Shown: positions 2,719-40,305 of the stretch, one piece after another
Numbering within the stretch: position 1 is the stretch's first letter
Layout of the letters: every line of letters begins with the position of its first letter
IMG/VR virus record: IMGVR_UViG_3300031867_000003
Location: 64,001-128,000 of that record
Reading direction: 5' to 3' (one strand)
DNA from: a virus
Lineage: Duplodnaviria; Caudoviricetes
Length of the DNA stretch: 64,000 nt
Notes under the pieces: model-generated
Database searches by the model: none
The model's input: the letters and a program-made list of their open reading frames with translations, nothing else
What the model was told of the DNA's origin: nothing
Made by a program: the position numbers and the translations under genes

Positions 2719-2729
2719 GGAGATATAAT

Positions 2730-3029
2730 ATGAAGGTAGTTGAAAATATTGGTTATATACTTGATGGTTTTGGTAATATTATTGGGAGCGGCATGTTTAA
2801 TATGAAAGTTCCGAGTCTTAACGATATCGCATCTGGGAAAAAAGATAAAGTAGTATGTAGGTTTAATAGCGATAAAACATTTAGAGCTACGATAGATGTA
2901 GATAGCATCGATATAAGAAATATGAAAAGATTTATTCTTAAGGGGACAAATAACTGGCGTAAAATGCATGGTTTGCCGATGCAGCACTACAAAAGATATC
3001 CACATGAGAAAAAGTCGAGGAAAAAATAA
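2730..3029 (+). CDS. Hypothetical protein
   Basis: AAGGAG RBS before ATG 2730, inside ORF 2673..3029. Confidence 0.6.
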   Translation: MKVVENIGYILDGFGNIIGSGMFNMKVPSLNDIASGKKDKVVCRFNSDKTFRATIDVDSIDIRNMKRFILKGTNNWRKMHGLPMQHYKRYPHEKKSRKK

Positions 3030-3199
3030 TGAAACATGAATTAGGATTTTGGTTCTGGTACTATATTGTAATGATAGCTAATGGTGTAACATCAATTCTT
3101 ATTGGCATAAAGTTGGCGAGACCCTCCAATATTGTTCTAGGAGCACTTTTAATTATTATTTATTCTTTTCTACTATGGGACTATAAAAACATGGATTAA
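3029..3199 (+). CDS. Small membrane protein (56 aa)
   Basis: TAATG coupling with the upstream stop; two hydrophobic segments. Confidence 0.55.
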   Translation: MKHELGFWFWYYIVMIANGVTSILIGIKLARPSNIVLGALLIIIYSFLLWDYKNMD

Positions 3200-3211
3200 T
3201 GGAGAAAACAT

Positions 3212-3832
3212 ATGGCTATTTTAAAAATCAGAAATGAATTTAATGATGATATAACATTAGATGTAATTGCCAAAGCCGAGCGAAGAGTGGCTAAAAAGAA
3301 AGAAGTTCTTGAGGATATACAGAATGAATATGAACTTCTTGAGAAGCAAGCTTTTGGCCTATATAAATCCATAATAGAATATTATATGTTGGATTGTGCT
3401 ACTATCGGCAAAGCCGCAAAATGGCTAGGTATGGTAGAGAAAAACAAAGATGCCAATGGTAACAAACTGGATAAACGCAAAAAACATGAAGAGAAGGATG
3501 CATTCATTTATATCCAGAATATTGTTAAAAGATTATTAGACCTAGAAGACTTCGAAATTACAAATATATTGGACTATAATTATAGTCAAGGTAAGAATAT
3601 AGAGTTTTCTTCGTATGGTCATAATTGGATATTGGAAGTTCCGTGGGTGTCTAATGTTACACTAAAATCGTATCAGTATACTGGTAAATATGTATTTATG
3701 TTGATGATATCACATAGAGATAGTGACTGGAGTTCGACTGTTGTGGGATCAACATTTGAAGAAAAAGAATTAAAAGATATCATGAAGAATGCCATTAAGA
3801 AATATTGCTCTGTGGATAATGGTGGTGATTGA
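3212..3832 (+). CDS. Hypothetical protein
   Basis: ORF track; GGAG RBS. Confidence 0.7.
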   Translation: MAILKIRNEFNDDITLDVIAKAERRVAKKKEVLEDIQNEYELLEKQAFGLYKSIIEYYMLDCATIGKAAKWLGMVEKNKDANGNKLDKRKKHEEKDAFIYIQNIVKRLLDLEDFEITNILDYNYSQGKNIEFSSYGHNWILEVPWVSNVTLKSYQYTGKYVFMLMISHRDSDWSSTVVGSTFEEKELKDIMKNAIKKYCSVDNGGD

Positions 3833-10325: not shown

Positions 10326-12398
10326 ATAATTTTATAGAATTGGAGCGTAAAACCCACTACCCTTGGGTAGTGGGATATAAGCGATCTCTCAACAGTATAT
10401 TTTACCAAAACAATGTGTTTCAGTAAAATGTATGCCATAATATACATACAGGAGAAATCCGAGTCTTTAGAAAGGAGTAAGACTATATGTATCTATCTGT
10501 AAAGCAACAGGTTAAGCATCTATCAAAGGAAGATTACAAAACTATTAGAGAACTCTGTCATATAGCTAAGAACCTCACAAATGAGGCTATCTATAATGTA
10601 AGACAGTATTACTTTACGGGGGGTGAGTACCTTAACTATAAGAAAAACTATGCTCTTCTCAAAAATAGCCCTAACTACAAGGCGCTAAATTCCAACATGG
10701 CACAACAGATACTTAAAGAAGTCGATGGCAGTTTTAAATCATTCTTCGGGCTTCTTAAACTTGCGAAGTAGGGCAAATATGCTTTTAAGGATTGTAAGTT
10801 ACCACATTATCTTCCGGAAGACGGATATACCACGCTTGTAATCGGGTTTGTAAGACTAAATGGTAATAAACTGATACTTCCGTTTTCTAACAGCTTCAAG
10901 AAAACACATAAAGCTGTAGAGATAACGATACCACCTATATTGCTTGATAAAAAGGTTAAAGAGATTCGTATTATTCCTAAAGCAAAGGCAAGGTTCTTTG
11001 AGATATAGTATATCTACGAAGTAGAGATTATTCAAAGAAATCTAAACCAAAACAACGCACTTGCTCTTGACCTTGGAATAAATAATCTTATAACCGCTGT
11101 ATCAAGTACAGGGAAATCGTTCATCATTGATGGAAGAAGGCTTAAATCTATAAACCAGTGGTTTAACAAAGAAAATGCAAGGCTTCAGTCTATCAAGGAT
11201 AAACAAGGTTTTGGTAAAAAGACAACCAATCGTCAAAAAGCTATTGCAAGAGACAGAAATAACAAAGTGAACGATTATATGAACAAAGCAGCACGTAAGA
11301 TCATAGATTACTGTGTTGCTAACGATATAGGTACGCTTGTTGTCGGCTACAATGAAACATTTCAATGTGATACCAATATGGGTAAACGAAATAATCAGAC
11401 CTTTGTAAACATCCCTTATGCTCAGTTACGGGATAAATTAGCGTATCTTTGCGAGTTAAACAGCATCACTTTTGTAAAACAAGAAGAATCTTATACATCC
11501 AAAGCAAGTTTTTGGGATAAGGATACTATTCCTATCTATAATGCTGATAACCCGAAAGAATATCAGTTTAGCGGTAAGAGAATGTGCAGAGGATTGTATA
11601 AAACAGCAAGTGGTAGTTCATTTAATGCAGATGTAAATGGGGCATTAAACATTATGCGTAAAAGTAGCGTTGTGGATATGAATATCCTATACGGTAGAGG
11701 CGAAGTGGACACGCCTATAAGAATAAGGATTGCCTGACTTGTCAGGTGGAAACTTAAATATCACACTTCTTAAATAGAGTTGCAAGACTCTTAGAAGCCA
11801 TGTACCTTTAGGTGTGTGGTAGTTCACTAAATCGATTATGGCGGGATGGGCATTTCTCGCATCTGATAACAAATTAGTGGGATCTATTCTTTTTTCAATC
11901 GGGCTGCTGTTGGTTTGCACTATGGGATACAACCTGTATACCGGCAAAATCTGTAAAGCATTTACAATCGGTGGTCCAAAATTTATTTTGTTTCCGTGGA
12001 TGCTACTGGGCAATTTTCTCGGCACATTTATTGTGGCAATGTTAACCAGAGTAGGGCGTCCACTTCTGATAGATAAGGCAACGGCTGTTTGCTCGGCAAA
12101 ATTATCTGAGGGACTTGCGGTAATTCCGCTGGCAATCATGTGTAATGTGATGATTTATTACGCGGTTACTAACTTTAGATATAATCCTCATCAACTCGGC
12201 AAATATCTGGGGATTATTCTCAGCGTAACAATATTTGTTTACTGCGGTTTTGAGCATTGTGTGGCTAATGCCTACTACTTTTTTGTTGCCGGTTTCTCCA
12301 TCATGTACATACCATTCTTGCTACTGAATGTTCTCGGCAATACAATTGGGGGAATCGTTATATATAGATTAGACACTTTATCAAAGATTAATTATTAA
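10322..12398 (+). CDS. Formate/nitrite transporter family protein, split at codon 5 by the TnpB element (main part 11838-12398)
   Basis: Motifs LFSIGL, LYTGK, GNFLG, CN, FEHCVAN, GNTIGG; multi-pass membrane protein. Confidence 0.85.
10336..11827 (+). mobile_element. IS200/IS605-superfamily TnpB-only element inserted after TTTAT
   Basis: Left hairpin CCCACTACC-CTTG-GGTAGTGGG; right end hairpin then TAGTTCAC; removal rejoins ATG AAT AAT TTT AT|T AAA TCG ATT ATG in frame. Confidence 0.85.
10487..11737 (+). CDS. tnpB: TnpB RNA-guided nuclease, 416 aa with two in-frame TAG (Gln)
   Basis: One frame from 10487 to TGA 11735, interrupted only by TAG at 10769 (LAK*GKY) and 11006 (FEI*YIY); RuvC motifs LALDLG, QEESYTSK, NADVNGALN. 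Confidence 0.85.
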
Positions 12399-12412
12399 AG
12401 GAGTAAGTAACT

Positions 12413-12646
12413 ATGAAGATTTTTAACATCAAAAACATTGAGGGATTCTTCAACGTGGTTGATAAGTGCAAGGGTCAGGTACATGTGGTGTCTCCGGAGG
12501 GCGATGATATTGTACTGACCAGTAAGCTGAGTAGGGTTGTCTTTGCGGTGATTAATGAGGAACAGATTAATAATCTGAATCTGGAACTCAAGTGTGAGAA
12601 CCCCGAAGATACAATGCTGTTTATGGATTTCTTGGCGAGAGGTTAA
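12413..12646 (+). CDS. Small protein, possibly HPr-like fold
   Basis: 'FFNVVDKCKGQVHVVSPEGDDIVLTSKLS'; AAGGAG RBS. Confidence 0.55.
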   Translation: MKIFNIKNIEGFFNVVDKCKGQVHVVSPEGDDIVLTSKLSRVVFAVINEEQINNLNLELKCENPEDTMLFMDFLARG

Positions 12647-12648
12647 TT

Positions 12649-13065
12649 ATGAGCGAGTATTATGTTAATGAAGAAAAAGGTACTGTTGTAAGTGTTTATG
12701 ATTCGGGTGACTGGGGATTGCATGATTTCTCACAGAAGGTACTGAAGCACGTTCATGGTCCGAGGATTTATCGCAATGTTATTGCGGATATTATTGACTC
12801 CAACATCTTTCCAATTTATCCGCAGTATATCCGTGGTGTTGCCAAGCTTGGTGAGAATGATTCCTGGGATGAAACCAAGGGTAAGAAAATTGCCGATCAG
12901 AAAGTCGCACTGAAGAAGAATGACCGCATTGTTAAACAGGCGATTCTGGTTAAGAAGCACTTGCTCAATATTGTTAAGGAACTTGATGTGATTATCAGTA
13001 AGTACTCTGAGAAGTGTGCTGCTATTGAAGAGGACTTTGATAGGTATTATGTAAAGGGGGAATGA
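12649..13065 (+). CDS. Conserved phage hypothetical protein
   Basis: 'GVAKLGENDSWDETKGKKIA' motif; ORF track. Confidence 0.65.
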   Translation: MSEYYVNEEKGTVVSVYDSGDWGLHDFSQKVLKHVHGPRIYRNVIADIIDSNIFPIYPQYIRGVAKLGENDSWDETKGKKIADQKVALKKNDRIVKQAILVKKHLLNIVKELDVIISKYSEKCAAIEEDFDRYYVKGE

Positions 13066-17543: not shown

Positions 17544-18746
17544 TTGTGTCTGCTTGCATCTGATGCTACTATAGATACATCATATATCCGTTCTCAGATT
17601 GATGATATGAACCGGAGAAAGAAGTATCTAAACAACCATAAGTATGCAATCACGCAAAATAAAGATGGGAAGTGGTACACATATTTGCCCGATCCCGTTA
17701 AGGGCAGAAAATTGTATAAAAGAAGTTCGAGAAAAGAATTGGAAGATATCATAGTAGAATGCTATGAAAAGTTGGAGTCACTAGGCTCAACGTTCGAAGA
17801 AGTGTATTTCATGTGGAGAGAATATAAAGATAAGATGGTGTCCGATAATACGGCAGTCAGATATGATACTGACTACGCCAGATGTCTCGAGGGTACTGAT
17901 TTTGTAAAGATGCCGGTGTCAGTAATTACTGAAGATGACATATCTGTATTTATAAAACAGCGGATCGAGTCCCTGAAGTTGCCGAAGAAAGCAGCCAAAA
18001 TGTTATTCGGATACATCCACAACACTTTGTTATTCGCTTGCCGCCACAAGCTGATTGACGAAGATGTGATGAGGTTCATGAAACCCGGCGAATTTTATGA
18101 GTACTGTGTGGCATCAAAAAGATCGCAAAAATCCCAGACTATTAGCGATGAGGATAATGCTAAACTTCAGGCATTGTTGAGGGATGACATACAAAACAAT
18201 CCGACTTACATTCCTCCATATGCCGTAGTACTATCTTCGCTGACCGGAATGAGAGTCGGCGAACTGGCTGCATTAACTTGGGACTGCGTATTCGAAGATC
18301 GTTTATTAATTAACAAATCAGAGAAGTATAATCGCAAGACCAAGACCTACTCAATTGAAGGTACTAAGAATGGTAAATCCAGGGTATTTCCAATGACCAA
18401 AGAAATTAAAGAACTTCTTTATAACCTCAAAAAGATCGAAATTGCCAATGGATTCTTAACTGAATACGTATTTAGCGGAGAATCCGGACGAATTCATACA
18501 AATGTAATATGTAGTTGTATTAAAAACAAATGCCGAACTTTAGGTATTACAGAGCGAGGAATTCACGCATACCGTAAAACACTGAACTCCAAAATGAGAT
18601 GTAGCGGTGTCTCGGCAACGGTTGCGGCGAGTTTGCTCGGTCACTCACCAGAAGTCAACGAGCAATACTACACGTATGATGTTGCAGATTTCTCGACCAA
18701 AACAAGTATCATTTCCGAATTAAATAAGAAGGTAATGGGGGAATAA
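17544..18746 (+). CDS. int: Tyrosine integrase (start uncertain)
   Basis: TGMRVGEL, TKN, HAYRK, LLGHS...YY catalytic motifs; adjacent to attP. Confidence 0.93.
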   Translation: MCLLASDATIDTSYIRSQIDDMNRRKKYLNNHKYAITQNKDGKWYTYLPDPVKGRKLYKRSSRKELEDIIVECYEKLESLGSTFEEVYFMWREYKDKMVSDNTAVRYDTDYARCLEGTDFVKMPVSVITEDDISVFIKQRIESLKLPKKAAKMLFGYIHNTLLFACRHKLIDEDVMRFMKPGEFYEYCVASKRSQKSQTISDEDNAKLQALLRDDIQNNPTYIPPYAVVLSSLTGMRVGELAALTWDCVFEDRLLINKSEKYNRKTKTYSIEGTKNGKSRVFPMTKEIKELLYNLKKIEIANGFLTEYVFSGESGRIHTNVICSCIKNKCRTLGITERGIHAYRKTLNSKMRCSGVSATVAASLLGHSPEVNEQYYTYDVADFSTKTSIISELNKKVMGE

Positions 18747-25577: not shown

Positions 25578-26078
25578 TTATTCCCGCTCTCCAAGAATTG
25601 CATCAATCATATTAAGTGTGTCGAAGCCGATGCGTTCGTCAATAGTGTCAATATAATCATCAATGTTAACTCCGTTATATTCGTATGTGTTTTGTTCCTT
25701 AAGGATTTCATCAAGTCGAGCATTAAGATCAGAAATTGCCTTCTGATATTCCTCAAGGTACTCATCTTTAACCTGAAGACCGTCTTTCATAACTTCGTTA
25801 CCGTCATCATCCACAACCGGATTGCCGGCTTCGTCAAGTTCCGGTAGCATTGTCTTGTTGGCATGAGTTTCATCAAAGTATACGTCGCGGATTTTCTGGA
25901 GTTCCGCATCTCTGAACTCCTCATACGCCTTTGTATCGCCACTCATTTTTTCAATAGCGCGTTTCAGATTCCACTTAATTTTGAGCGGAAGTTTATCCAT
26001 AGTTTCTTTATTATTAACAAGTTGGTTATAAAATGCTACACAGTTAACAGCCTCAACAACATACAAATTTTTCTTCAT
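25578..26078 (-). CDS. Hypothetical tail-region protein
   Basis: AAGGAG RBS before MKKNLYVV; ORF track. Confidence 0.7.
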   Translation of the reverse strand: MKKNLYVVEAVNCVAFYNQLVNNKETMDKLPLKIKWNLKRAIEKMSGDTKAYEEFRDAELQKIRDVYFDETHANKTMLPELDEAGNPVVDDDGNEVMKDGLQVKDEYLEEYQKAISDLNARLDEILKEQNTYEYNGVNIDDYIDTIDERIGFDTLNMIDAILGERE

Positions 26079-26149
26079 AATTATAATTCTCCTTTTCTTC
26101 ATAAATTTACATTCACATAATAATTAATCAATCAATCATCACTCAATCA

Positions 26150-27007
26150 TCACTCAGTTGTTTCGTCTCCATAGACGATATTCATAAATTCATCAATAGC
26201 AGCACTGCCGTCACCACCACCTTGTCCCGGAGTAGTTCCGATGTGTGGAAGGTTTGCAATCGCCGCACTATACAGTTCGGTATATTTTTCACTAGTCGCG
26301 GAATCAAAATCCATAGCAAATGAATAGCCGGCAACTTCATCCTTGGTAGTAGCACCGTTAATCAGTTCCTTCACTAGGGTAAGCCGGATATTATTAGCGT
26401 TAACAAACTGTTGCATAGCAAGATATACCTTCATAAAATCATCAACCGAGTAGTTAACTCCGTCATACGGCACAGTAGTAATTTTTCCATCACTGGAGAT
26501 AATCACACTATATAAGTTCATAATAGCCATCTGAGAATCCGGACTCATCGAGAACAGTTTAGATCCGGTAGATAATTCCGCATGAACTCCGGTCGTGACA
26601 GTATCGAGATAGTCCGCTTCCGCACGTTTAAGGTAGTAATCCTTTACCTCGGCAAGCGTCATGGTTTCGGGATCGACTACCGGGTTCACGACTTGATCGA
26701 TTCGTTCAATAATCTCCATGAGGTTCGCCTTAGTCAGTGCAACACTCATAGTTTCGGCGAATTTGCCTTCGCCCTCTACATACATACGTCCCAGATACGA
26801 TATCTGAGAGAACCCGTCAAAACACGTAAATGAACCGACTACCGTACCGTCCATATAGATATCGAGGCGCTTAATGTCGGTAAACGCGGATTTCACTGCT
26901 TCAAAATCGGAGCTCTGAACATACAGCACCATATCATTTTTAAACATATTGGAATCCCAACGGGATAATCTGAACGTTGTATTATTAACTCTAGCAGTAA
27001 TAATCAT
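26150..27007 (-). CDS. Tail-associated protein (DUF4376-like, possible chaperone)
   Basis: 'GVHAELSTGSKLFSMSPDSQMAIMNL...DDFMKVY'; start MIITARV follows the upstream stop. Confidence 0.6.
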   Translation of the reverse strand: MIITARVNNTTFRLSRWDSNMFKNDMVLYVQSSDFEAVKSAFTDIKRLDIYMDGTVVGSFTCFDGFSQISYLGRMYVEGEGKFAETMSVALTKANLMEIIERIDQVVNPVVDPETMTLAEVKDYYLKRAEADYLDTVTTGVHAELSTGSKLFSMSPDSQMAIMNLYSVIISSDGKITTVPYDGVNYSVDDFMKVYLAMQQFVNANNIRLTLVKELINGATTKDEVAGYSFAMDFDSATSEKYTELYSAAIANLPHIGTTPGQGGGDGSAAIDEFMNIVYGDETTE

Positions 27008-27008
27008 A

Positions 27009-27695
27009 TTATTCCACCACCTTCCAGCCGGCTGGATATGCTGCCGGACTCCAAACATTGTTGTCGATTGTCGATTCGTAAACAACACCTTCAAAAGTTA
27101 CTTTGTCGCCGGTCATATACGGATTGCCGGCATCGGGCTGTGTCCACTCGGGAATTTCTTCAGTCGGTTCCGGAGTGGGTTCCGGTTCTGGTTCGGGATC
27201 GGGTGTAGGTTCTGGATCTGGAGTTGGTTCCGGAGTCGGCTCGTCGCCACCCTCATCCTCAACAACTTCAAAGTAGTTACCGACTAACGAAGCAGCAGCA
27301 GCATAGAGCGGTTGACCACTGTCTCTCAGACACAAATAAAGGATTCCGTCCTCAGTGTAATAAAGATCCTTGACCACCGTGAGATTTTCATTATACGGAA
27401 TCGGGTCATCAATAGCGCCGCTATGAATTTCGTCAATGCGCTCCCACAGAGAAGCAGTAGCGGTGGACGGTTCCCAACCGGTTTGGCTCGTGTGAGCCTG
27501 ACGGCACTTCCACAGTTCGACCTCTTCGCCGGGTTTATAGCTAACACGTTTGCCTACTTCGTAATCAGTATCTGGTTTCCACCGTTCAACAAATGTTGCA
27601 ACAGACAATGCTGTCTGATCATCAAGAGTTTCAGTTACATATTCGAGGAGCTTGCGAAGTTCCTTTGCTTTAGCTGTAATATTACTCATAGTCAT
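27009..27695 (-). CDS. Carbohydrate-binding (CBM5/12-like) protein with PEPTPD linker
   Basis: 'WKCRQAHTSQTGWEP', 'YMTGDKVTFEGVVYESTIDNNVWSP'. Confidence 0.75.
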   Translation of the reverse strand: MTMSNITAKAKELRKLLEYVTETLDDQTALSVATFVERWKPDTDYEVGKRVSYKPGEEVELWKCRQAHTSQTGWEPSTATASLWERIDEIHSGAIDDPIPYNENLTVVKDLYYTEDGILYLCLRDSGQPLYAAAASLVGNYFEVVEDEGGDEPTPEPTPDPEPTPDPEPEPEPTPEPTEEIPEWTQPDAGNPYMTGDKVTFEGVVYESTIDNNVWSPAAYPAGWKVVE

Positions 27696-27876
27696 CTTCC
27701 TCCTTTGTTTGGTCTAAATCTCCCATAATGGTATTAGTGAACATGTTTAATTCATCTGCCTGTTTTGCAACAAGCTATTTTAATTCTTCATTTTCAGCCC
27801 TTAGATTTAACATCATTACACGTTCCTTCGGCGACATTGTTCTGGGCTGATAAAAAATCTTTCCGTTGCTACTCAT
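27682..27876 (-). CDS. Small coiled-coil protein, 1 TAG=Gln
   Basis: MSSNGKIFYQPRTMSPKERV...EELK*LVAKQ; ends TAA. Confidence 0.5.
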
Positions 27877-28906
27877 AATATTTCATCCTTTCATCATACC
27901 AATGTTGTAACTTTGTTATTAGCTAATGATTATTTCCCTTGCTCATAAATGACAATCTCGCGGTTTTACTATCCTCTATACATTGTTTCGTCCGTTCGCC
28001 TTTGGCGTACATTTTCATTAGCTTTTTCAGAATATATTTAAACTCCCTAACCGATTGACTTCGCGGGAACTATAACACCTTGCCCGTGTCAGTCACTCTC
28101 CACTAAAATCCTATGAACTCAATTCCTTTGGCTAGAGTAGTAATATGTGTCTTGTCTTCATGAGGAGTTAAACATAATTTATCCAATTCTTTTGTGATCT
28201 CATCCAGACAATACTTTAAATATTCTTTATCCTCATGAATCAGAACCATGTCATCCATAACACGAATATAATCTTTGATATGAAGTTTCTCTTTAATAAA
28301 ATGATCGAGACCGTCAAGCAGACTTATACCGGCAATTTGTACCATTTGACTTCCCGGATTATATCCGGTATCACCTTCATACTATGCGTCGAGAATTTGC
28401 GCCACAATTTCATACGCATCCGGTTCTAATTTTTTACGAAACATTTCCTTTACAATATTATGCTTCATTGACGGATAATATTTCTTTATATCAATTTGCA
28501 AAATATACCCGTCGGTTCCATGGTTAATGTAAAAGCGTCGAAGTTGCTTGCGGAATAAATCCAAGCAATAATCTATTCCTTTACCTATTTGACATGCGCC
28601 ATTCTCTTTAATAAACGATTTTGACATTGTCGGATATAATATCTTGTCATTAAGTGTTCTCTGCCAGACTCTGTCTCGATATGATATTGCCAAGATATCT
28701 CTTGGTTTTGGTTTTGTTACCTAGAAAGAAACAGGAGCTTGAGACTTATATTCACCACTTTTCAGTTCATTGGAAAGCTATAGGATTTCTTCAAATCCGT
28801 GGAGTGAAAATCTCGCAACAGAGTCCTTCCATATGACTCCTTGTTGCGCTTTTAAATGACTTTCATATAAAGCCTCAAAACTCATGACTTCTTCGATTGC
28901 ATTCAT
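27794..28906 (-). CDS. DGR reverse transcriptase (370 aa in code 15; 7 TAG)
   Basis: AGGAGG RBS; 'KPRDI...YRDRVWQR', 'ACQIGKG', 'LQIDIKKYYPS', 'GYNPGSQMVQ', 'YIRVMDD', 'IEFIGF'. Confidence 0.93.
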
Positions 28907-29081
28907 AAATACAACCTCCTTTTTCTTGCTGTAATAGTGCGGCCGGTTCACCGACAACACATCAGCAAAATATTGTTTAGTATGGGAGTACCGCACCCAC
29001 ACAGGGTTATAAACTCCTTGCAACCGGGATTCTTCATTCTGCGACATATACGCATGTATTTTTATAAAATCCCGTCTCCAA

Positions 29082-29184
29082 TCGACAGCGAGGCGATTAG
29101 CGTTGTTCGGGTTATTGTTGTTCACATTACCAGACGAGTTCACATTACCCTCGTTATTGTTCCCGAGCCATGCCGAGCGAACCC
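29082..29184 (-). repeat. DGR template repeat (TR)
   Basis: 103-nt AAC/AAT-rich copy of the VR; all 17 differences from VR are at TR adenines. Confidence 0.97.
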
Positions 29185-29220
29185 GCCCCAGCACATTAAT
29201 AGCTTATAACCCAAATATAA

Positions 29221-29670
29221 TTATTTTAAGTTCTTGTACCTCTTGTAGTCATTGTCTTTCCATCGTTGTAACTGATTGCGCACCAGAACTGTTTGCTGCG
29301 TCCAATAAGTATACCGTTTTGGCGGTAGGTGAAAAATTGGTGCGCTCAGTTCTATAAGTGCAAGAAGTTCATTGCATTTTGAAGTACTTTTGTCTTGCAA
29401 ATTTCTTCTATGCCGATAATTATTCTTATTCAGAAACGTGGAGTTTGCAGAATATGCACTCATATATAAATCCAGTACCGTTTCGCGGATCTTTGCGACC
29501 AGTTCCGGCTGTGGTGGATTTTTCTTATCCTTTTCTGCGTCACCACAAGGTACAACCTTAAAATTATTGTTGTTCTATAAAATCGTCAGAGTATAAACGC
29601 ATAATTTTTTCGCGTTTATCAAACCTTCAAGTTGCGATTCGTTACGTTGTTCCTTAGGTACATTTGACAT
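29221..29670 (-). CDS. avd: DGR accessory variability determinant (Avd-like), 1 TAG
   Basis: 149-aa basic helical protein between VR and TR; 'MSNVPKEQRNES...ANS...RRNLQ...W...D.KRY'. Confidence 0.85.
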
Positions 29671-29701
29671 TGTTTTAGTCCTCCTTTTATTCCTAGAAAA
29701 A

Positions 29702-29723
29702 TAGGCACTCTTACGAGCGCCTA
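29702..29723 (-). other. DGR target-recognition hairpin downstream of VR
   Basis: TAGGCGCTC-GTAA-GAGTGCCTA just after the target stop codon. Confidence 0.75.
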
Positions 29724-29737
29724 TTAATGATTATTGA

Positions 29738-31237
29738 TTATATAATTGCGCAAGCGACAGCGAGGCGAATAGCGTAGTACGGGTAATTGCCGTTCACATA
29801 ACCAGACGAGTACACAAAACCCTCGAAAACGCTCCCGAGCCAAGCCGAGCGAACCCAATATGTTTGTGCAGAAGTAGTAGCATTTACCTAATATTTTTTT
29901 AACACCTCATATGTTCCGCTTGCCACGGTCTCTTCACTTTCAAGCAGTTCTTTATAATACTGGAACGGAGTCCCGTCCACCGTTGATATATTAGTAGCAT
30001 TCTTCAAATTCATTTCATGATGTGACGGCATCCAGAATTTATCATATGTATAATCAGTTCCACCGCCCATATAATTAGGCTCTTTTGTGGTAATCTTAAT
30101 CGGATGAATAGCGTTAACCAGATCACTGGATATATAGCTCTCAAATCCTAATTTATTATCATATCCGCTCGGCATTACATCACATTCGTGTTGTGCTTGC
30201 CACCATCCAGTTCCGGAATTATTTAGGTATTGCCTAGCACAACTATACTTCCAACTATTTGTTCCATAGCGAATAGCGTTAACCTAGTTCCATAATGTTA
30301 CAAACACCTTGTCATAATCTTCGTATGGAATAGTATCACCGACACTCAGATTAAGCGCGGTATATACGGTACCTTCTGCCGTATATCCATAGTAATAATG
30401 ACCGGCAGACGCTGTTTGCTCAGTAGCTTCAGTTTGTTCCGGCGCGTCAAATATCACTGTATCATGGTTTAAATATTCCATTATGAGAATTGGCACATTA
30501 TCGTAAGTTGTGCCGTCCTAAAGTTCCACTGTCTAAAAATCTGCCACAATCCACGGATTGGCATATTCAGTAGTACCAATTGTATACGTGTCGTTAATTA
30601 CGTCACCTACATTAAAATATTCATTTGCCCTACCGGTTTTTGCCACTTGTATCATCTTTTCCCAGGTGTCGGGAATAATATCCGCAACCGTTACCGGCTA
30701 AATAGCAGTCAGAACATACGGCTCTGTCCCGGTATATGTAAGAGTTACGTTTTGTGAACCCAGCGTTGACAGAATTGCAGGAGTAGCTGTATATTCGTTA
30801 TCCGATAAAATTCGTGTTTCACCGGTACTCCAAATCAGGGTTACTACCATACCGGTTTTATCAAATGTATTTCCGACTTCATATTCGGTTTGCGTTGGCG
30901 GAGTAGTCACAGTGATTGCGGTAGGGTAGGAGATATCCGGCAACTCAGCCACGCCATTATTTACCACGCTTACTCCACCAATTGTTACGTCCGAAATAGT
31001 TCCGTCCTATATAGCCTATATAGCATCACCCGTAGCCTTAGCATCGGCAGCTTGCCCGGTAGTACTCAGTGTAGCGTCAATATCTGGTGCTAAATTATTA
31101 ATTAACGTTTTAAGAACGGCACCGGTTACTTTCCGGCTGCCGCTCGTTGTTTCTATCATAAACACATCCGCATCATTAATTGTCGAGGCGGCTGTGAGAT
31201 TAGTTATCTTTTTTACTCCGTTTACCTTAATAGACAA
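29738..31237 (-). CDS. DGR target protein: Ig-like domain + C-terminal DUF6273/CLec-like domain (499 aa, several TAG)
   Basis: Single frame; 'ITVTTPPTQTEYEVGNTFDKTGMVV' (Big-like); ends 'YWVRSAW...RLAVACAII'. Confidence 0.9.
29754..29856 (-). repeat. DGR variable repeat (VR)
   Basis: Colinear with TR; encodes the last ~34 aa of the target. Confidence 0.97.
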
Positions 31238-34200
31238 TAAAATCATCCTCCTCTCCAATTGCGTATCCGTCGTCGGTTACGATAATAAAATTGTCATTTG
31301 ATGTGATGGGTGATGAGGGTACATGTTGATATGCGTCATCATTGTGTTTCCAGTAGGTTATTTCTACATCGGAGTTTGAATTGCTCCAGATGGTATTTGC
31401 GCCACGTAGGGTGGTGAGAGTTTGGGGGTCGATGGGGTAGACCGTCGGCGAATATACCTCACGAACAAGTTGAATATTATTATCAATAAACCATTGTCTT
31501 GCTGTATCTGCTGTTAAGGGTGTTTCAGAATGAATAAGAGTATGAAATCTATTAGATTGATTGAGTAATACATAATCTAATTCGTATCCAATCTCTAATG
31601 TACTAGACTTCTTATATCCGTATGATAATTTTGAACACATACTATTATTTGAAGATCCATATCCTTTTCCACCAACTCCACCAAATCCAACTTCATAGTA
31701 TCCATTACCTAAATCATTAAAAAGGTTTGTTTTGTTTAAATAAACATACTCTTTCCATGTTTCCACAATCTCCCCATTAATCAAATCCACATATCCGCCA
31801 TAGATTGTTTTAGGAAATGGAATAGTGATAAATGTACCGCTTGTATCATAAGGTGTAGGAGATGAACCATATTCAAGCTGTAATTCAATGCCCTTAGTTG
31901 TATTATGATATTCACATCTCCAATAATATGCATCTTCTTTTAATGTGAATGACCTATAAAATCGTCCTGGAGTGTATTGAGATGTCCATGTCATAGTCCA
32001 ATAATCAATTTGTGTTTTATCTTTACGATAATATCTTATTTTATTAGCATAGTTTGCTGAACCTACAACCACTGTTCCTTTTGGTATATGACAATATGCA
32101 AAACCATCTTCATCTGGATTTTCAGCATCTAATAAATTTCTATCTACTCTTGCCATAGTTATAGAATCCCATCCCTCAATGGGACAAATGTTGGAGTAAG
32201 GTTCATAACTAGTCGCGGAACTACCAGATTCTAGCTGATAGTTATATAAAGCAAGAGAAGTAGTAGAACCATTCTTTATTACAAATAATCTAATATCTTT
32301 TTCTTCTTCAATAGTAAAAGTTAATAAATTTGAATTTGCACTACTAACCATACCAGTATCATCATTTTTAGCAATTACATCCGCCGTTGTATTAACAGAA
32401 AATGTATATGTTCCAGCTTTTAAATGAATAGATCCATTTGGGGTTGATGAAGACACGGTGCCACCAAAAACAATAGCTCCATTATTTTCTTCGAAATTAT
32501 TTTGATCCAACAAATTCTTCCCACTTCCCCCAATCCACGGCTTATCATACCCATGGAGGTCTTGCTTCGGCAAAAACCATACCTTACATTCCTTCAAATC
32601 CGCCGCCATATCCGTACCAAAGCTAATAATACTGTTTTTGGCGGTCACTGTATGCGGCGTCGCTGTAAAGATATTTTTCCTGGACTCTATTGGATCAAAC
32701 ACCCCGATGTAATCATATTCGATTTCAATGCGGTCGGCATTGCTCCAGAAGTTGTTGTCGAACATGAGGGTACTTAGGGTGGTGGGGGAGAGTTGGTGAG
32801 TAGTGTAAAAACTATCATTAATAAATGGATAGGCAATATAATGACCAGCATATTTTGTTTTAAACTCTTCCACGGTTGACACCGTACTATCATAAATATA
32901 CATTGATGTCCCTTGAAATGTACCATCAGCAGTTGCAGTAGCATTTTCTAAACAATCGCATAATATCTCATTTGAAGCTTTAACACAGTATCCTTTTCCT
33001 GATACCCAATGTCTTAATAAAAAACGATGTAACCATGGCTCACCAGCACCAGAAGATTTTTCAATACTTGAAAATTCGCTCATATCTCGTCTTTCCCAAG
33101 TTTCCACCAATTCTCCGCTCACCAAATCTACATACCCACCATACACAGTCCCAACATCCTCGGACCAATCAATATCATAGCGGTTGACCGCGGGGCCGGT
33201 GACAAATTCGCCAGTTCCAGAATTGGTGTAGAATTGACCGGAGACCGCATCATACATTCCGGCGACTTTGTCAGATTTGCGGTAACAAGGGATAAGGTTA
33301 AATGCCAGATTTTCACCGTCATATAATGCAATTGAGTAACATTTGCAACCAAACATATGAGTTGAAGCACCGTCTGCAAAAAGTTGAACAGGTTTAGTTG
33401 ATTTAATACTGTTTGTATGCGTTGCTGTATATGTTTTGCCATTAACGACCATTGTTTTCTCGTTACTATCAAGATTATAGGTTGCTTCAAAATTATATTT
33501 TGTATCTACTGTGCTACTGTAAGCGTCCGTAGTCACATTAGTTTCACTCGATTGATACTCCCTAGAGTATCCAAAAAACTTGTATTGATAGATGCCAACA
33601 ACAAAACGTCCTGTTCTAGTATCCTGATTTCCAATCAAATCGCGTTCAGATGATATAGTCTTTGTTGTGAAATCAGCCAAAATCTTTATATTCTCTGTTT
33701 GCACATAATAGTTCGTATCTATATACTGCGTCCCTGTACTCTCCAAATATTCAACCTATTGATACTCCTTCGGCAATGAAAGGTTGGTTTTATAGGGAGT
33801 ATATTCGGTAGCTTCTGAGCCACGTTCAAGTTGAAGATTATAAATTCTATTTACAGCAGTTTTTGACGCATTCCCAAAGCAATTAAGAGATAGATTAATA
33901 CAGAAATCTTCTTCTGCCGTAAATGTTGTTGTAATATGACCGCTATCGTTACTAGCCTGTGGAATAGTCTTATATGAAGCTGTCCATGCCAAAGATGGTT
34001 TTCCAATAATACATGGTCTCCAATAATAATTTCCAATACCATTTATATAATCAAATGATAACGTATACGTACCAGGTGGAAGTAAATTGTCATAAACGAA
34101 TACGCCTATATCTCGTTGACCGGAAATAATAGTTCCAGATAATTCACCACTGGCAAAAATCATATCATTTGGTTCGGTTTTAACATTAGATGGATGATGA

Positions 34201-34439
34201 TAACTATTTATATTTGTTTCTAATAAATTCTTCCCACAATGATTTACCTCAACCCCAGTCCAACCGCTAATCGGCCGCACATTCTCAGGACTAGGAGTTC
34301 CGCTCCCTTCTTGCTTCGGACTAAAATATACCTTAAAACTACGTATTCTCTGGCTTCTGGGAGTGTAAAAATTCAAAAATTCCCCCGATAAAATCTTCGT
34401 TTTATCATTTGTCATAATTTCGTTCGTTACGTCTGCCAT
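31227..34439 (-). CDS. Mosaic tail fibre/receptor-binding protein (1070 aa, 1 TAG)
   Basis: ORFs 33756..34439 and 31227..33746 joined by 'EYQ*VEYLESTGTQYIDT'; repeated 'YGGYVDLxxGExVETW' boxes. Confidence 0.8.
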
Positions 34440-34966
34440 GATGCCACACTCCCATAAGTTGCATTCTCAATGCTGATTGCGTATGTATAACCGGATTCAA
34501 TCACAAACCATTCGGGCATTTTGACAGTTGCGGGAAGAGTAAGAGTCGGAACAGTAGTACCGGCAGAAAATATTACTTCAGTGACACCTTCGCTTGGAGG
34601 AGTGAATGTTAACGAAGTAACCTCACCACATACATAGCGAGTGTTGGGGTTAGCTGTGATAGTAGGAGTAGTTCCCGTCACATTTATTTCAATACCGTCT
34701 TGGAAGCTATCGGCTACTACAGCTTTAACATCGGACTCGGTCTAATAACCGGCTCCGTTAGTTAACTGATTATTATTAGTAGGAATTGCCGCTTCAACTC
34801 TGTTAATCTCATCATCAACGTAAGTAGTAGTAGAATAACCGGCACCGTTTGTTAGTTGATTATTATTAGTGGGAATCGCCGCGTTAACTTCGGTAATTTC
34901 CCCATCTATATATTGTTTTGTTTTCTAAAGAGATGCTTGCAATTGATCTAATGTCGTAATTGCCAT
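34427..34966 (-). CDS. Tail-associated protein with IPTNNNQLTNGAGY repeats, 2 TAG
   Basis: GAGGTG RBS; MAITTLDQLQASL*K... Confidence 0.75.
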
Positions 34967-35004
34967 TATTATTCACCTCATTTCTTTAATAATTAATTAT
35001 ATAA

Positions 35005-36003
35005 TTAAGCTTTATATTTGTTGTACGATGTACGAAGAGTAGTGTCATCCAAACAAATATAAGCAGTAGTAGTATTAATATTGGAATGTCCCATAAGCTT
35101 TTGGATTTCATGAATATCCATACCGCGTTTAGATAAGTTCGTTGCAAATGTACGTCTCATGCGGTGAGGGTGTGCATTGTCCACGTTCGCACGTTTAGCA
35201 AGTTGGTTAAGAATAAACCTAACTCCGCCGGAATTTAACGGCTCATGATTGTGATTATAAAACAACATATTACCGGTTTCCGGGCGGTTATTCAGATAAT
35301 AACTCACGTATTTAACAGCCAAATCATTAGTATAAACCATTCGCTCCTTTGCACCTTTGCCGTGGCGAACATGAACGGAATAATCTATTAGATTAACATC
35401 GGTAGTTTTCATAGCAGTTAACTCCGATACCCTGATTCCGGTACTTAACAACATTTCAATTAACGCTCGTTCCTTCGCTGTTTTACATGCACACCGAAGA
35501 GCGTCAATTTCGACGTCGGAGAACGGTTTCTTGATTTCATCCGTATATTTTACCGGTTTAAGTTTGGCAATCGGATTCTTATCCAATATATCTTCATTAG
35601 TCATCCACTGGAAGAATGCGCTTAGATTTGCCCTGGTATTTTCAAGAGTGCGATTAGATACCTTTCTATCTTTCTCCATCGCTAGGAACATTCGTATATC
35701 ATAAATTCCCATCTCGGGAAACGGTTTATTAATTCTATCAGATAGTTTCTTTATGGTTCTGATATACTGATAGATAGTATTTTGGCTTTTACCTTCAATA
35801 ACTAGACAACCAATATAGCGGCTGATTAGCCTGGTATTAGTGTCATCGAGCGGAACAATTTCCGTGCAACGCTCAGTTACCTCATAGTCATTCAGTGTGA
35901 GAATAACCGTATCTGAAATAACCGATAGTTGCTCGGAAGTAAATAATCCGCATAATTTATTTTCAATTGTTTTAACTATTTCCATGCGATAATCCATTGA
36001 CAA
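35005..36003 (-). CDS. XerC/D-like tyrosine recombinase within the tail module (no TAG)
   Basis: STGIRVSEL, HGKGAKER, HPHRMRRTFAT, LMGHSNINTT..Y. Confidence 0.95.
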   Translation of the reverse strand: MSMDYRMEIVKTIENKLCGLFTSEQLSVISDTVILTLNDYEVTERCTEIVPLDDTNTRLISRYIGCLVIEGKSQNTIYQYIRTIKKLSDRINKPFPEMGIYDIRMFLAMEKDRKVSNRTLENTRANLSAFFQWMTNEDILDKNPIAKLKPVKYTDEIKKPFSDVEIDALRCACKTAKERALIEMLLSTGIRVSELTAMKTTDVNLIDYSVHVRHGKGAKERMVYTNDLAVKYVSYYLNNRPETGNMLFYNHNHEPLNSGGVRFILNQLAKRANVDNAHPHRMRRTFATNLSKRGMDIHEIQKLMGHSNINTTTAYICLDDTTLRTSYNKYKA

Positions 36004-36036
36004 CCCTCCCTATGCGTTTAATAATTAATCAATAGA

Positions 36037-36066
36037 ATTATAGCATAAGAAGGATTCTAATGTCAA
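36037..36066 (-). promoter_or_regulatory. Consensus SigA promoter for the tail-module recombinase
   Basis: Minus strand TTGACA-18 bp-TATAAT with extended -10 TG. Confidence 0.8.
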
Positions 36067-36087
36067 CAATATGGTATTTAATAAATA

Positions 36088-36111
36088 ATTATAAGTGTGC
36101 TTTAAGTTAGT
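36088..36111. repeat. Putative recombination site B (ATTATAA-GTGTGC-TTTAAGT-TAGT)
   Basis: 7-6-7 arm/spacer layout; right arm is the perfect inverted repeat of ACTTAAA at 38067-38073; GTGTGCTTTAA recurs at 36202-36212. Confidence 0.55.
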
Positions 36112-36221
36112 AGTGCTATCGGTCTACAATTCCGTCCGATTATCGGAGGCTTGCTGAGTTCTAATGTTTTTTCAGAGCATTCGCCGTTTGTTTTTAAAAT
36201 TGTGTGCTTTAAAAGAGTTGA

Positions 36222-38294
36222 TTAGCTGTTTAATAGATTGTGCATATATCCATTGTATGCAATACCAAACGCTTCATAACCATACTGTGACGGATGCACG
36301 TTATCTGTATATACAGTTATCTGTGTTGGATTGTTGTATGTTGCATTAACTTGTGCTGTTACAAAATCATACATATTATCAAGATTAAGATTTTGATAAA
36401 CAATGTTTGCATTTGTATATGCGACAACCTGATTGTAACGGAAGCAAGCTAAATCAAATTCTTGATTATTCTGCATATACTTTCCTGTTCCGGTGTTATT
36501 CGCTGCAACATTACTTCCTACCATTACCGTAATTATTATATCAGCATTATAACTATGTATGCTGTTAATAATCTGTTGCATACGAGGTATTATGCTTGTA
36601 GAAAAACCATTATTTCTACCGAGTAATATATTAACAATTTCAACATCGTTAAATGATGTGTTGTTTGCCATGTAATAGCTAAAATCAAATGTTTGTGTTG
36701 TAGGGTTGTAAAATGGATTTGTAACACCACCTTTTGATGCAGAGAAGTAATCATTAACACTCCACCCGTTTCGACCTTCATGCAAATATGGTGCTGTTCC
36801 TCTTGATCCATACAATGTGACTTTTCCTTCATTGTGGTCATAAAACCATTTTTGAATATATTCGGCATTTGTGTATGAGTCACCTAAGAAAAGATATTTT
36901 TTAGGTGGCAATTCTGATATATTGCAATGAACAATAATCTGCTTACTTGCCACTTGTATTCCTTCTCTTTTAAATTTTATGGTTACGGTGATGTTTTTGG
37001 TTGACCTCACATTAAACTGAATATATCTGTCAGAGTATGTTATCTCTGGATAAGTGGCGCCTGTTGCTTCTACAACAAAATATCCATCATTTGCACCTCT
37101 GCAAAGTTCGTTGAAATATATTCTCTGTTGTACATTGGTTATATATACATCGGTTAATGGTAAGAACCTTATAATGCCAGAAGTTCGCATAATGCACGCT
37201 TCCTCTATTTTCGTTGATTCTATTGTAAGTCCTAAACCATTGGCTAATGTTATTTTGGACCAATCAACAACTGCTTTTGCAAGAAGTATGTTGTTGCTGT
37301 CGTAAATATATACTGTTTCAGTCGGTAAATCATTTCTGGAAGGTCTTGGAGCAGACACATAAATTCCGGTTCTTCCGCTTGTGCTTCTAATCTCCATTTG
37401 CGATGTATGCTGACTGGCATGATAAGCAAACAGTGCAGACACGTAATAATCGTCGTTATCATCCGCATATACCACTAAATCCTCTATCCCATTTTGTTCC
37501 CTTGAGTATACAATTTGTGCTGGGTATCCCGGTCTGTATAACGTAGAATCAGCAGTAAAAGGGTATATTCCTTGCGTTTCAAGAAAAGAAGCAAGCTTGT
37601 TTAGTGTAACAAGATCATTGTTTATCAACTTTACAGATGCAAACAAGGAAGCATTTGAGGGGGTATAAGCGGAAAATGTCGGGTCAATAATACCATTATA
37701 TCGTATCATTGGTCTAAAAATGACATTATCAAACGTTCTGTTTGCAGTAGTGTAAAACCTAAGTCGATAAAGTCCTGTATATGGTGCTGTAAAAACAACA
37801 TCAGATGGACCATTAACGGTGGCAACTATATCATTTTCTTCAGTTAGAATCTGCAAATTCATGTTTGCCTGTCCACCATTAAGAATGTATTGTTCATTTT
37901 CTATAAGATTGACTGTTTGAACATTTGCATATAACTTGCCTGTAGTGGTCCCATTTACGGTATATGTCCCATCTGAATTTGCTATTATTGATAATCCCAC
38001 TACAGACGGACTATTATATGTTGATGGCTGTAGCAGGTTTTTTGCTCCCATTTTATTCTGATACACACTTAAATCTGCCTTTATCTAAGATACATCATCG
38101 ACAAGTTCCTAGTAATCCGCCGGCGCATCTCCGCCACCGGTCGGTAAATTTTCCACGGTCTCAGTAAGACTATCTAAATCCGTTTGTAGCTGCCCAACGT
38201 CAGTATTGAGCGATTCTACTCCGGTTTCTATATTATTCATTTTATTGGCAGTGATGATATCTCCATCACTCCATGTAGTTTTCGTATAACTCAT
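36222..38294 (-). CDS. Tail spike-like protein with C-terminal SGNH/GDSL esterase (690 aa; 2 TAG, both in the N-terminal anchor)
   Basis: MSYTKTTWSDGDIITANKMNNIE...DY*ELVDDVS*IKADLSVYQNK...; SGNH blocks FLGDS, GRNGW, LGRNN, DNVHP. Confidence 0.85.
38067..38086. repeat. Putative recombination site A inside the spike gene (codons IKADLS)
   Basis: ACTTAAA-TCTGCC-TTTATCT; marks the change from TAG-using anchor to TAG-free body. Confidence 0.55.
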
Positions 38295-38307: not shown

Positions 38308-40305
38308 TCATGAGAATACCTAATTCAACATTGTTGTTACAGAAGCATCGGTTGCTATGTCGGCATCCGTTAGGTAGCCGGTTAAATCAACTTTGGTGTC
38401 ACCAATCTATTCGAATTTATCTCCGGTGTAAATATATTCATAAAAGATATTATTAGTTGTGGCAATAGTAGCAGTACCAACTTGTGCTGTTCCGGTTATT
38501 GAATTGTTATCAATCCCTGTGTCGCCAATTGGCTTTGGCACAAGATAAATTACTCCAAGTTCGCCGGTTAATGTCGGGATGTAGGTAGTTGAATTATATT
38601 CACCGGGTTCGCAAACGTGATAGCGAGTGTTGACGAGATTATCTATTGCACTAGATATATCTGAGGACGTTGCGAAGCCTAACATAGTTTTGATGGCAGT
38701 CTTAGCTTCATCAGTATAGGTTCCTACGGCATTTGCGGATGCCGATTGAGTTGTATCACCGGCTGCTTTAGCTAAACCATAGAAAGTTGCAATATGCTAC
38801 CGAGCAGTATTAACTGCATATTTCGTATTATTGCCAAGCTTTAGAGAAAGATCTGTAGGATTAGTAGGCGATAGTACACCATTAGAATCAACATAAATCC
38901 CATTGGTAGAAACCACCTTTACTACCCCCGCTTTATTACCTGTAGCAATATCATCAAATGTCACATAATTACTCAAATCAATATCCAAAGTTCCAAGCCG
39001 TTCATACTTATCCGTAATCCAGATGTACTCATCAAAAACATCATTCGTCCCATGAGTGTGAGCAACCAGATAAATCACGCCTTTAGTTCCGGTAGCCGGG
39101 AGTTCAGTAACAACCTGGAATTCAAAACTGGTTATATCACTGATAGCGTCGGCGATTGCTGAGTCAATTCCTAACATAGATTGGATTGCGGTTTTTGCGG
39201 AATCGGTATATGTTCCGACAGCATTGGAAGATTGACTCTGTGTTGTGTCTCCAGCTGCTTTTGCGAGGCCGTAAAATACAGATTTATGTTGCTGTGACGG
39301 TACAATCGGTCTGAAATTATTAGTGCCATTATGGCAATCGTTATCTTCTGCTTTTACAACAGCAATAAATTCACTCCCACCAACTTCCAATCCGTATGCT
39401 CTATTTGTTTTTATAACACCTGCCGCATTGGTGCTAGAAATCGGAATATTAGCCACCTTGTTCTCAAGTATGCTCGTTCCGTTAACCTAAACATCATCAA
39501 CCTTACCAGCTTCACCAAATTCCCATGAAGTTACCTTGCCGTCGGAAACCGTCTTTGGCATCATAGCTTTACCGACATCAGTAGCAGTAGCGGTACCATA
39601 CTGGAGAGTATCTTCTTTAGTAGCTAATCCATTGGTAAGTTCTGTAGTAGTAGCATAAGAAGAATCATTCTATAGCTAACTAACCTTAGTCGGAATACTT
39701 GCTTCAAGAGTATCAAGTTCTCCGTCAACGTACTATTTGGTAGCATAATCACTATCATTCTGTAGTTGACTGGTTTTGGTCGGAATCGCCGATTCAACGC
39801 CAGAAATTTCGTCATCAACATAACCTTTGGTTGTGTAGTCACTATCATTGGTCAAATCACTTGTCTTAGTCGGAATAGTGCCGGAAAGTTCCTCAAGCGC
39901 TTGAGTCATTTCTTGGGCAAGTTGATTATCTGCGTTATCAAATTCTTGTCTAATTGCAGTAGCAGTTTGAGATAACGACTAGTTAACCTCGGCAATCGCA
40001 TCACCGGTTGCTTTGGCATCAGCGGATTGTCCGGAGTTTGTCAGTGTTGCATCCACAAGTGGGATAGCAATGTTGACATTCTTTTGGTCAATAGCTTGCG
40101 CATTGCCATTGACCTGGATTGATTCTATTATGTTCTCCTAGGCACCGGATTCGATTGATTCCAATTTAGCCACATCGGCATCCGAATAGTTGTTATCGGA
40201 CAATGACTTCCCGGGTTCTTTGTCAACCTTTGTGGCTAATTTCTCCTTCATGTAGGTAACCAGAGTACGTACTCCGTCAAAAGAAAGAAATTTTGGTTTT
40301 GCCAT
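38308..40305 (-). CDS. Tail fibre-like protein with IPTKxSxLxNDS repeats (665 aa in code 15)
   Basis: MAKPKFLSFDGV...; duplicated 'FYGLAKAAGDTTQS...NAVGTYTD'; ends TGA. Confidence 0.8.

Follow-up and report, generated by a model that had tools for sequence, protein, structure and literature searches.

A tail-spike locus with a tyrosine recombinase and paired 20-bp sites, a probable module for exchange of the spike body in a TAG-recoded phage

How can a phage replace the enzymatic end of its tail spike and keep the gene in frame? This question is raised by the tail region of a large gut or rumen phage, represented by a 202-kb virus record (IMGVR_UViG_3300031867_000003) estimated to be complete. 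The stretch analysed, called here the window, has 64,000 nucleotides and corresponds to bases 64001-128000 of the record. Its minus strand shows a tail-spike gene (36222-38294), which encodes 690 residues with TAG read as Gln, and downstream of it a gene encoding a XerD/XerA-like tyrosine recombinase of 330 residues (35005-35997). The spike gene is divided by a short site into an anchor of ~75 residues and a body of ~615 residues, and a second site is located between the body and the recombinase gene. The distal parts of spikes and fibres largely determine which hosts a phage can infect, and to our knowledge they vary by three routes: inversion switches, diversity-generating retroelements (DGRs) and unprogrammed mosaicism. 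Comparison with related contigs suggests that the locus is probably a dedicated site-specific recombination module, which exchanges the distal enzymatic part of the tail spike.

Homology breakpoints and sites of the spike locus

When the spike protein is used as query, some hits share only the first ~75 residues (65-97% identity) and continue as SGNH, GDPD, BNR or Big_3 sequence, and other hits share the body alone, with different N-termini. In the protein alignment, identity extends to ...(I/L/V)KADL and none is found after it, as anticipated by an earlier note on this DNA, which had predicted a constant N-terminus up to (I/L)KxDL and unrelated C-termini. The DNA of near relatives, of which at least seven were compared (contigs L007/8, L009, L010/11, L015, L016/17, L020, L021 and L187), shows the same boundaries: it is 85-99% identical until ...AAAGGCAGATTTAA, unrelated sequence comes next, and identity returns at (A)CTTAAAG(G/C)ACAC and runs on through the promoter and the gene of the recombinase. 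All the anchor-sharing contigs contain a near-identical recombinase gene of 329-330 residues, ~105 nt after the stop codon. The same note had also expected a conserved site after the stop codon, and ACTAACTTAAA-N6 is found directly before this gene. At least 10 related phages in all show homology that breaks off inside the in-gene site and returns at the site after the stop codon. The bodies contained between the sites include several kinds of SGNH esterase, a GDPD, a metallophosphatase, a peptidase S11 type, a pectinesterase, and a Big_3 protein accompanied by a separate CotH gene.

In the window, the breakpoints correspond to two 20-bp units with 7-bp arms and a 6-bp spacer. The left site, S1 (38067-38086, minus strand), reads AGATAAA-GGCAGA-TTTAAGT, is translated in frame as the IKADLS that ends the anchor, and marks the 5' homology breakpoint. 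The right site, S3 (36088-36107, minus strand), reads ACTTAAA-GCACAC-TTATAAT, marks the 3' homology breakpoint and lies 21 nt upstream of the recombinase promoter. A degenerate third site, S2 (36195-36214, minus strand), with the sequence TTTTAAA-GCACAC-AATTTTA, is directly 3' of the stop codon and has in common with S3 the 11-mer TTAAAGCACAC, present in 2 copies in the window vs 0.04 expected. The predicted exchangeable cassette with the spike body occupies 36215-38066 (minus strand), and a non-coding filler of ~87 nt (36108-36194, minus strand), with the spacer GCACAC on both sides, is located between S2 and S3. The general design of the sites is A-N-TTAAA, a 6-nt spacer and TTTAA-N-T. The left site reads in frame (I/L/V)K-x-D-L-(S/T). 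In most cassettes the right site either overlaps the stop codon or adjoins it, and the spacers, in gene orientation, nearly all start with G and most with GG.

When a site matrix is trained on other lineages, with the window left out, S1 scores 16.7 bits and S3 17.4 bits, and these are its only hits in the 202-kb genome. Since both exceed 12 bits on the minus strand alone, the two sites are in direct orientation. The earlier note had reported TTTAAGT at 36101-36107 and ACTTAAA at 38067-38073, with their spacers and outer arms, as a perfect inverted repeat; all these elements are present, but the 7-mers are really the inner arms of two direct 20-bp sites. As evidence the 7-mer was rejected because it occurs at chance frequency: TTTAAGT alone has 17 copies in the window vs 16.7 expected, and the 8-kb stretch around the locus contains 153 inverted pairs. 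The sites are significant because they are conserved in other phages, not because of the 7-mer frequency. Long inverted or direct repeats around the locus are limited to fibre-repeat motifs.

Spacers are nearly constant within the same backbone, and the cassette-facing arms vary with the cassette. The left spacer is GGCAGA in six close relatives with six unrelated cassettes, and the right spacer is of the G(G/C)ACAC type in nine loci (TCACAC in L015). Given constant spacers and cassette-dependent arms, the exchange point is probably at the spacer or next to it. At every locus examined the left spacer is unlike the right one (GGCAGA vs GCACAC in the window). Contigs L020 and L021 are 100% identical over 1152 bp from inside the right site and have unrelated cassettes, and between L020 and L009 identity is 99.6% in the 1786 bp that lead to the left site but 89.5% on the recombinase side. 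The recombinase protein P0053 is found unchanged in two samples, beside a pectinesterase cassette in the first and an SGNH cassette in the second, and contigs L022 and L023 start inside the right site, as expected of an assembly-graph fork there. Judged from these comparisons, exchange is very recent relative to point mutation.

Recombinases 52-62% identical to that of the window are very common in 20-80-kb standard-code phage contigs of rumen-type metagenomes. The layout of the window recurs in a second lineage, which uses the standard code and whose recombinases are 58% identical. Its left site is an in-frame LK(E/A/S)DL, 1.5-2.8 kb upstream, and its right site, mostly with the spacer GGGCAA, follows the stop codon of the upstream gene ~10 nt before the -35 of the recombinase promoter. 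The breakpoints recur with the same precision: L003 and L042 are 78% identical up to the left site, have unrelated cassettes and are 99% identical from the right site on. The strict pattern TTAAA-N6-TTTAA is confined to the cassette boundaries in L003, L009 and L014, and in 23 recombinase-bearing loci (249 kb) all of its 11 hits are located upstream of the recombinase gene. In IMG/VR, a generic site pattern, whose hits are mostly noise and give no measure of prevalence, falls at the end of a long frame in 11 of 121 cases and has an adjoining recombinase in 5 of 80; a search of the same database with the exact promoter-region pattern gave no match. The species-representative genomes provided one useful hit, in a Lachnospiraceae metagenome-assembled genome from sheep ileum (51% identity).

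Two other features were observed at these loci. In the second lineage the recombinase start is separated from the promoter by a conserved structured leader of ~140 nt with two G+C-rich hairpins (L003:3915-4078, with counterparts in L034-L051); no Rfam family reaches threshold, the best being ctRNA_pT181 (25 bits vs cut-off 56). Site doublets 32-34 nt apart, e.g. KADLS-ESVG-DLKSAL, are present in L016:4230-4290, L041 (-2107/-2074) and L043 (-1124/-1090), which suggests that cassettes can carry along the junction of a former host gene.

Cassette, recombinase and genome context

The minus-strand late genes of the window show reading frames that are open only with TAG as an amino acid, and in most of them TAG accounts for ~30% of the Gln-type codons. 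The cassette follows a different codon use. TAG is present in the spike protein only at Q62 and Q70, and the body contains 27 CAA/CAG codons and zero TAG; these counts bear out the earlier note, which had described an anchor with two TAG codons and a body of ~615 residues with more than 25 Gln and no TAG. The G+C fraction of the body is 0.354 vs 0.418 in the anchor. In the recoded relatives TAG represents 1 of 94 Gln-type codons in the bodies vs 8 of 21 in the anchors. At the DNA level the cassette of the window shares 85.7% identity with a cassette of L012, a small siphophage contig with the standard code, in a match which spans from the left site S1 to TTTTAAAG just after the stop codon, i.e., S2. 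Being TAG-free, the cassettes would work in both standard-code and TAG-recoded phages. The C-terminal part of the body is a putative SGNH esterase: GDS, GRNN and DNVH are readable (SGNH blocks I, III and V, with the patterns GDS, GxN and DxxH), the match to PF13472 is weak (18 bits vs cut-off 32.9), and homologues of the body carry PF13472/PF00657. A sequence search of the PDB with the spike protein gave no match.

The ~87-nt filler between S2 and S3 looks like a mini-cassette or an insertion footprint. A similar arrangement is found in L189, where the right site is split by an insert with a reversed RHH-type gene and GCACAC is on both sides, and by their layout both look like footprints of conservative insertion at a site.

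Contig L014, from a Joint Genome Institute (JGI) metagenome and unrelated to this phage, contains two different SGNH cassettes, at 1702-3395 (plus strand) and 10906-12988 (minus strand). They share a 78-nt anchor end (94% identical), lack a start codon and have a right site of the same design. Other genes, over ~7.5 kb, separate the two, and the part of the contig examined lacks a recombinase gene. These may be stored or orphan cassettes.

The call of the open reading frame (ORF) finder for the recombinase gene, 35005-36003, starts at a TTG at 36003; the ATG at 35997, preceded by the ribosome-binding sequence AGGGAGG and shared by the relatives, is most likely the true start. The gene, on the minus strand, shows zero TAG and its product matches PF00589 (5e-38) and PF13495 (7.5e-12). 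Together with the gene order, the PF00589 match establishes what had been noticed earlier, a second tyrosine recombinase downstream of a spike gene. The protein is built of a SAM-like core-binding domain (PF13495/PF02899) and a catalytic domain (PF00589), with no arm-binding domain, and its catalytic residues R189, K214/K217, H278, R281, H304 and Y313 are intact and invariant in 15 homologues. The best NCBIfam matches are XerA, XerC and XerD, every one below its equivalog cut-off, and the nearest PDB entries are XerA (4A8E and 5HXY) and XerD (1A0P). By sequence, the enzyme is classified in the Xer-like (armless) branch of the tyrosine recombinase superfamily. The published phage genomes gave no match by megablast, and a protein search of them with the recombinase found only relatives with less than 36% identity. 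The promoter of the gene (36037-36066, minus strand) is of the sigma-70 type, with TTGACA, 18 nt and TG-TATAAT; it includes a TG extension, agrees with 12 of 12 consensus positions and is kept in the relatives. Because of this promoter and the zero TAG, the recombinase can probably be made while the standard code is in use, in a lysogen or in early infection.

Two other functions were considered for this enzyme. The genome contains four tyrosine recombinases, including an integrase-like gene at 17544-18746, and a second, larger integrase is located ~2 kb away in five second-lineage genomes (two of them complete, with terminal repeats). Since a separate canonical integrase is present in the same genomes, a role of the tail-module enzyme as lysogeny integrase is ruled out. 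Dimer resolution of the Xer/dif type uses one dif-type site per replicon, with ~11-bp arms and a 6-bp spacer and no function besides resolution; it was rejected as well, as two to three sites with arms of ~7 bp bracket a hypervariable gene part here and the XerC/XerD equivalog cut-offs are not reached.

An A+T-rich word, TTTAATAATTAAT, is found on both sides of the recombinase gene (34984-34997 and 36016-36030). Similar words recur at many intergenic places genome-wide, and this is probably a regulatory or terminator-associated motif.

In gene order, the locus begins with a fibre gene (38308-40305, minus strand), followed by the spike and recombinase genes and by two fibre-like genes on the same strand, at 34427-34966 and at 31227-34439, the latter encoding 1070 residues. 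A DGR is located a few kilobases away, and its target, Avd and reverse transcriptase have homologues in L005; the phage would thus combine two diversification systems, DGR and cassette module, for one tail. The 1070-residue gene has TAG in 1 of 27 Gln-type codons and a patchy similarity to L007, and three genes at 25578-27695 have zero TAG; standard-code phages may thus be the source of further parts of the tail region. The block 27705-34884, which contains the rest of the 34427-34966 gene, the 1070-residue gene and the whole DGR, is missing at this place in L009 and L010, which have their reverse transcriptase upstream of the fibre genes. Three relatives share the boundary at 27705. A GIY-YIG/NUMOD1 homing-endonuclease-like gene is found a few genes upstream of the spike in several relatives (L007:4531-5700, L010:4842-6071, L016:598-1842, L019:3226-4599 and L187:4394-5023).

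Explanations for the replacement of the body

In the explanation that we favour, the recombinase would bind the sites and cross over in or beside the spacer, and each site would recombine with its counterpart in a co-resident phage, a prophage or another cassette carrier. One event between left sites and one between right sites would together give an in-frame replacement of the body, as in laboratory recombinase-mediated cassette exchange, and the exchange would be expected to change the host range. Recombination of left with right, which would delete the body, is disfavoured because the left and right spacers always differ. Like-with-like exchange between genomes is favoured over excision of a circle, since the spacers are unlike and bound to the backbone, the footprints show equal spacers, and the pairs L020 vs L009 and L020 vs L021 are consistent with crossovers at a single site. 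The earlier note had proposed cassette replacement rather than a shufflon, and in fact no silent inverted copies are present in the genome; its excised circle, on the other hand, is disfavoured by the same constant difference between spacers. As a more tentative extension, unrelated phages, ranging from temperate ones of 40 kb with the standard code to TAG-recoded ones of 200 kb, might swap bodies from a shared TAG-free pool by natural cassette exchange, with reserves of the L014 type.

Several points weigh against this explanation. The supporting data are sequence comparisons, in which no recombination product (circle, empty site or exchange junction) was seen, and once cassettes have conserved flanks in common, plain homologous recombination would preserve what look like identical boundaries. 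For a Xer-type site, arms of 7 bp are short, and the left and right spacers never match, which complicates any account of the chemistry by which a cassette enters. Some sites are degenerate (the right one in L015 and L016, the left one in L010 and L020), L037 shows no clear site, and L012, L014 and L019 have sites without a nearby recombinase gene. The matrix used to scan the relatives was trained partly on the loci scanned.

The body could also move as in integrons or Tn916, the recombinase excising it as a circle by recombination of S1 with S3 despite their unlike spacers, and another circle entering the hybrid site. The direct repetition of the sites agrees with this route, as do the G or GG with which both spacers start beside the left arm, so that one strand exchange would be ligatable, the tandem cassettes and split sites (S2/S3 in the window, L041, L043, L018 and L189), the start-less cassettes of L014 bounded by both sites, and a weak similarity of the catalytic domain to the Tn1549 Int. 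However, the spacers stay with the backbone and not with the cassette, both for GGCAGA and for the G(G/C)ACAC type; both clear insertion footprints are flanked by identical spacers, and neither an empty site nor a circle is found among the sequences compared. The integron-integrase models give the recombinase 77.8 bits (TIGR02249, cut-off 265) and 55 bits (NF011946, cut-off 435), and no folded attC-like element is seen, as judged without formal folding. We consider this route unlikely. A somewhat smaller chance is given to ordinary mosaicism, in which bodies are swapped by homologous recombination within two conserved stretches, the anchor and the recombinase gene; the enzyme would be a passenger (e.g., a dimer-resolving Xer/Cre-like enzyme with its own site by the promoter) and the in-gene site an LKxDL structural motif encoded by A+T-rich codons. 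The tail region is indeed mosaic elsewhere (protein P0005 matches L007 in patches, and the 7-kb block from 34884 to 27705 is missing in L009 and L010), some fibres repeat LKxDL-like motifs at an interval of 11 residues (L016 and L041), and more distant relatives of the recombinase are located in ordinary lysogeny modules without a site (L013). Mosaicism does not explain how unrelated bodies came to share the exact nucleotide of entry across three or more unrelated anchor backgrounds, why the non-coding right boundary repeats the 7-6-7 design of the coding left one, or why, in two lineages, the distance between the recombinase gene and the site that follows the stop codon is fixed. A weaker point is that TTA represents 13-41% of the Leu codons in the site-bearing genes and yet is always used at the site, an observation subject to ascertainment bias since most sites were found by DNA pattern.

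Inversion of the segment between the inner inverted arms, as in the Rin shufflon discussed below, would turn the body off, leaving the anchor with a short out-of-context tail, or choose between bodies. The layout equals the expressed part of that shufflon, the arms are nearly palindromic with orientation set by the spacer alone, a flipped anchor would read TAG TAG, 16 more codons and then TAA, and L014 has its two cassettes in opposite orientation. However, the 202-kb genome contains no alternative body, silent copy or second anchor end, no inverted cassette is present beside any of the 33 recombinase loci, where minus-strand matrix hits are echoes of stronger plus-strand hits, and no relative was found in the flipped state; both window sites, as stated above, exceed 12 bits on the gene strand only. 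Inversion is therefore regarded as very improbable.

If the favoured exchange between genomes is true, an enzyme-and-site module which replaces a whole 600-residue enzymatic body in frame, in two lineages and across genetic codes, would be a fourth route of spike and fibre variation. It would explain the clean spread of depolymerase-type modules among gut and rumen phages, the shared cassette pool would constrain codon use in recoded phages, and the small recombinase and its sites would provide a natural pair for modular phage engineering.

Comparison with known systems

The earlier note recognised no described system of this form, but the layout is shared by the Rin shufflon (PMC6109161) of Bifidobacterium and Eggerthella prophages (Mavrich et al., 2018; PMC6109161; PMC8778435). 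Both show a constant N-terminal part of a receptor-binding protein, one site within the coding sequence, another in direct orientation just beyond its 3' end, and a variable C-terminal part flanked by an armless XerD-like recombinase distinct from the lysogeny integrase. Rin prophages contain three to five silent variable segments in the genome, and inversion takes place at asymmetric 11-bp sites and has been seen in reads (PMC6109161; PMC8778435). In contrast, the locus has one cassette, no silent copies and variation between genomes by replacement; its sites are of 20 bp, with palindromic arms and unlike spacers left and right, and its enzymatic bodies have 500-650 residues vs ~100 in the Rin tips. 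The Gin, Cin and Min systems (Mu, P1 and p15B, respectively) also have a constant fibre part outside, a variable part inside, an adjoining recombinase and a host-range purpose, but they are serine invertases with enhancer/Fis-dependent inversion and alternatives in the same genome, whereas the locus shows a tyrosine recombinase and no alternatives.

Integrons resemble the locus in their tyrosine recombinase with its own promoter beside the insertion point, promoter-less cassettes, short inverse core sequences at the cassette ends, occasional tandems and a pool across unrelated backbones. The attC of integrons is an imperfect palindrome of 60-140 nt that folds single-stranded, and the cassettes are expressed from a common promoter. 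Unlike them, the recombinase of the locus fails the integron-integrase models, the cassette is usually single and fused in frame to a resident gene, its ends are plain 20-bp sites, with the body often stopping inside the left arm, and no structured attC is present (folding was not formally tested). The full-text literature searched contained no description of such an in-frame replacement module, nor of a natural phage equivalent of laboratory cassette exchange. In that engineered procedure, carried out with Cre or Flp and heterospecific sites, the sites have the same arms and different spacers, so that the cassette resists deletion and is cleanly swapped with that of a donor equipped with both sites; it provides a working analogy to the spike locus, and not a family to which the locus belongs.

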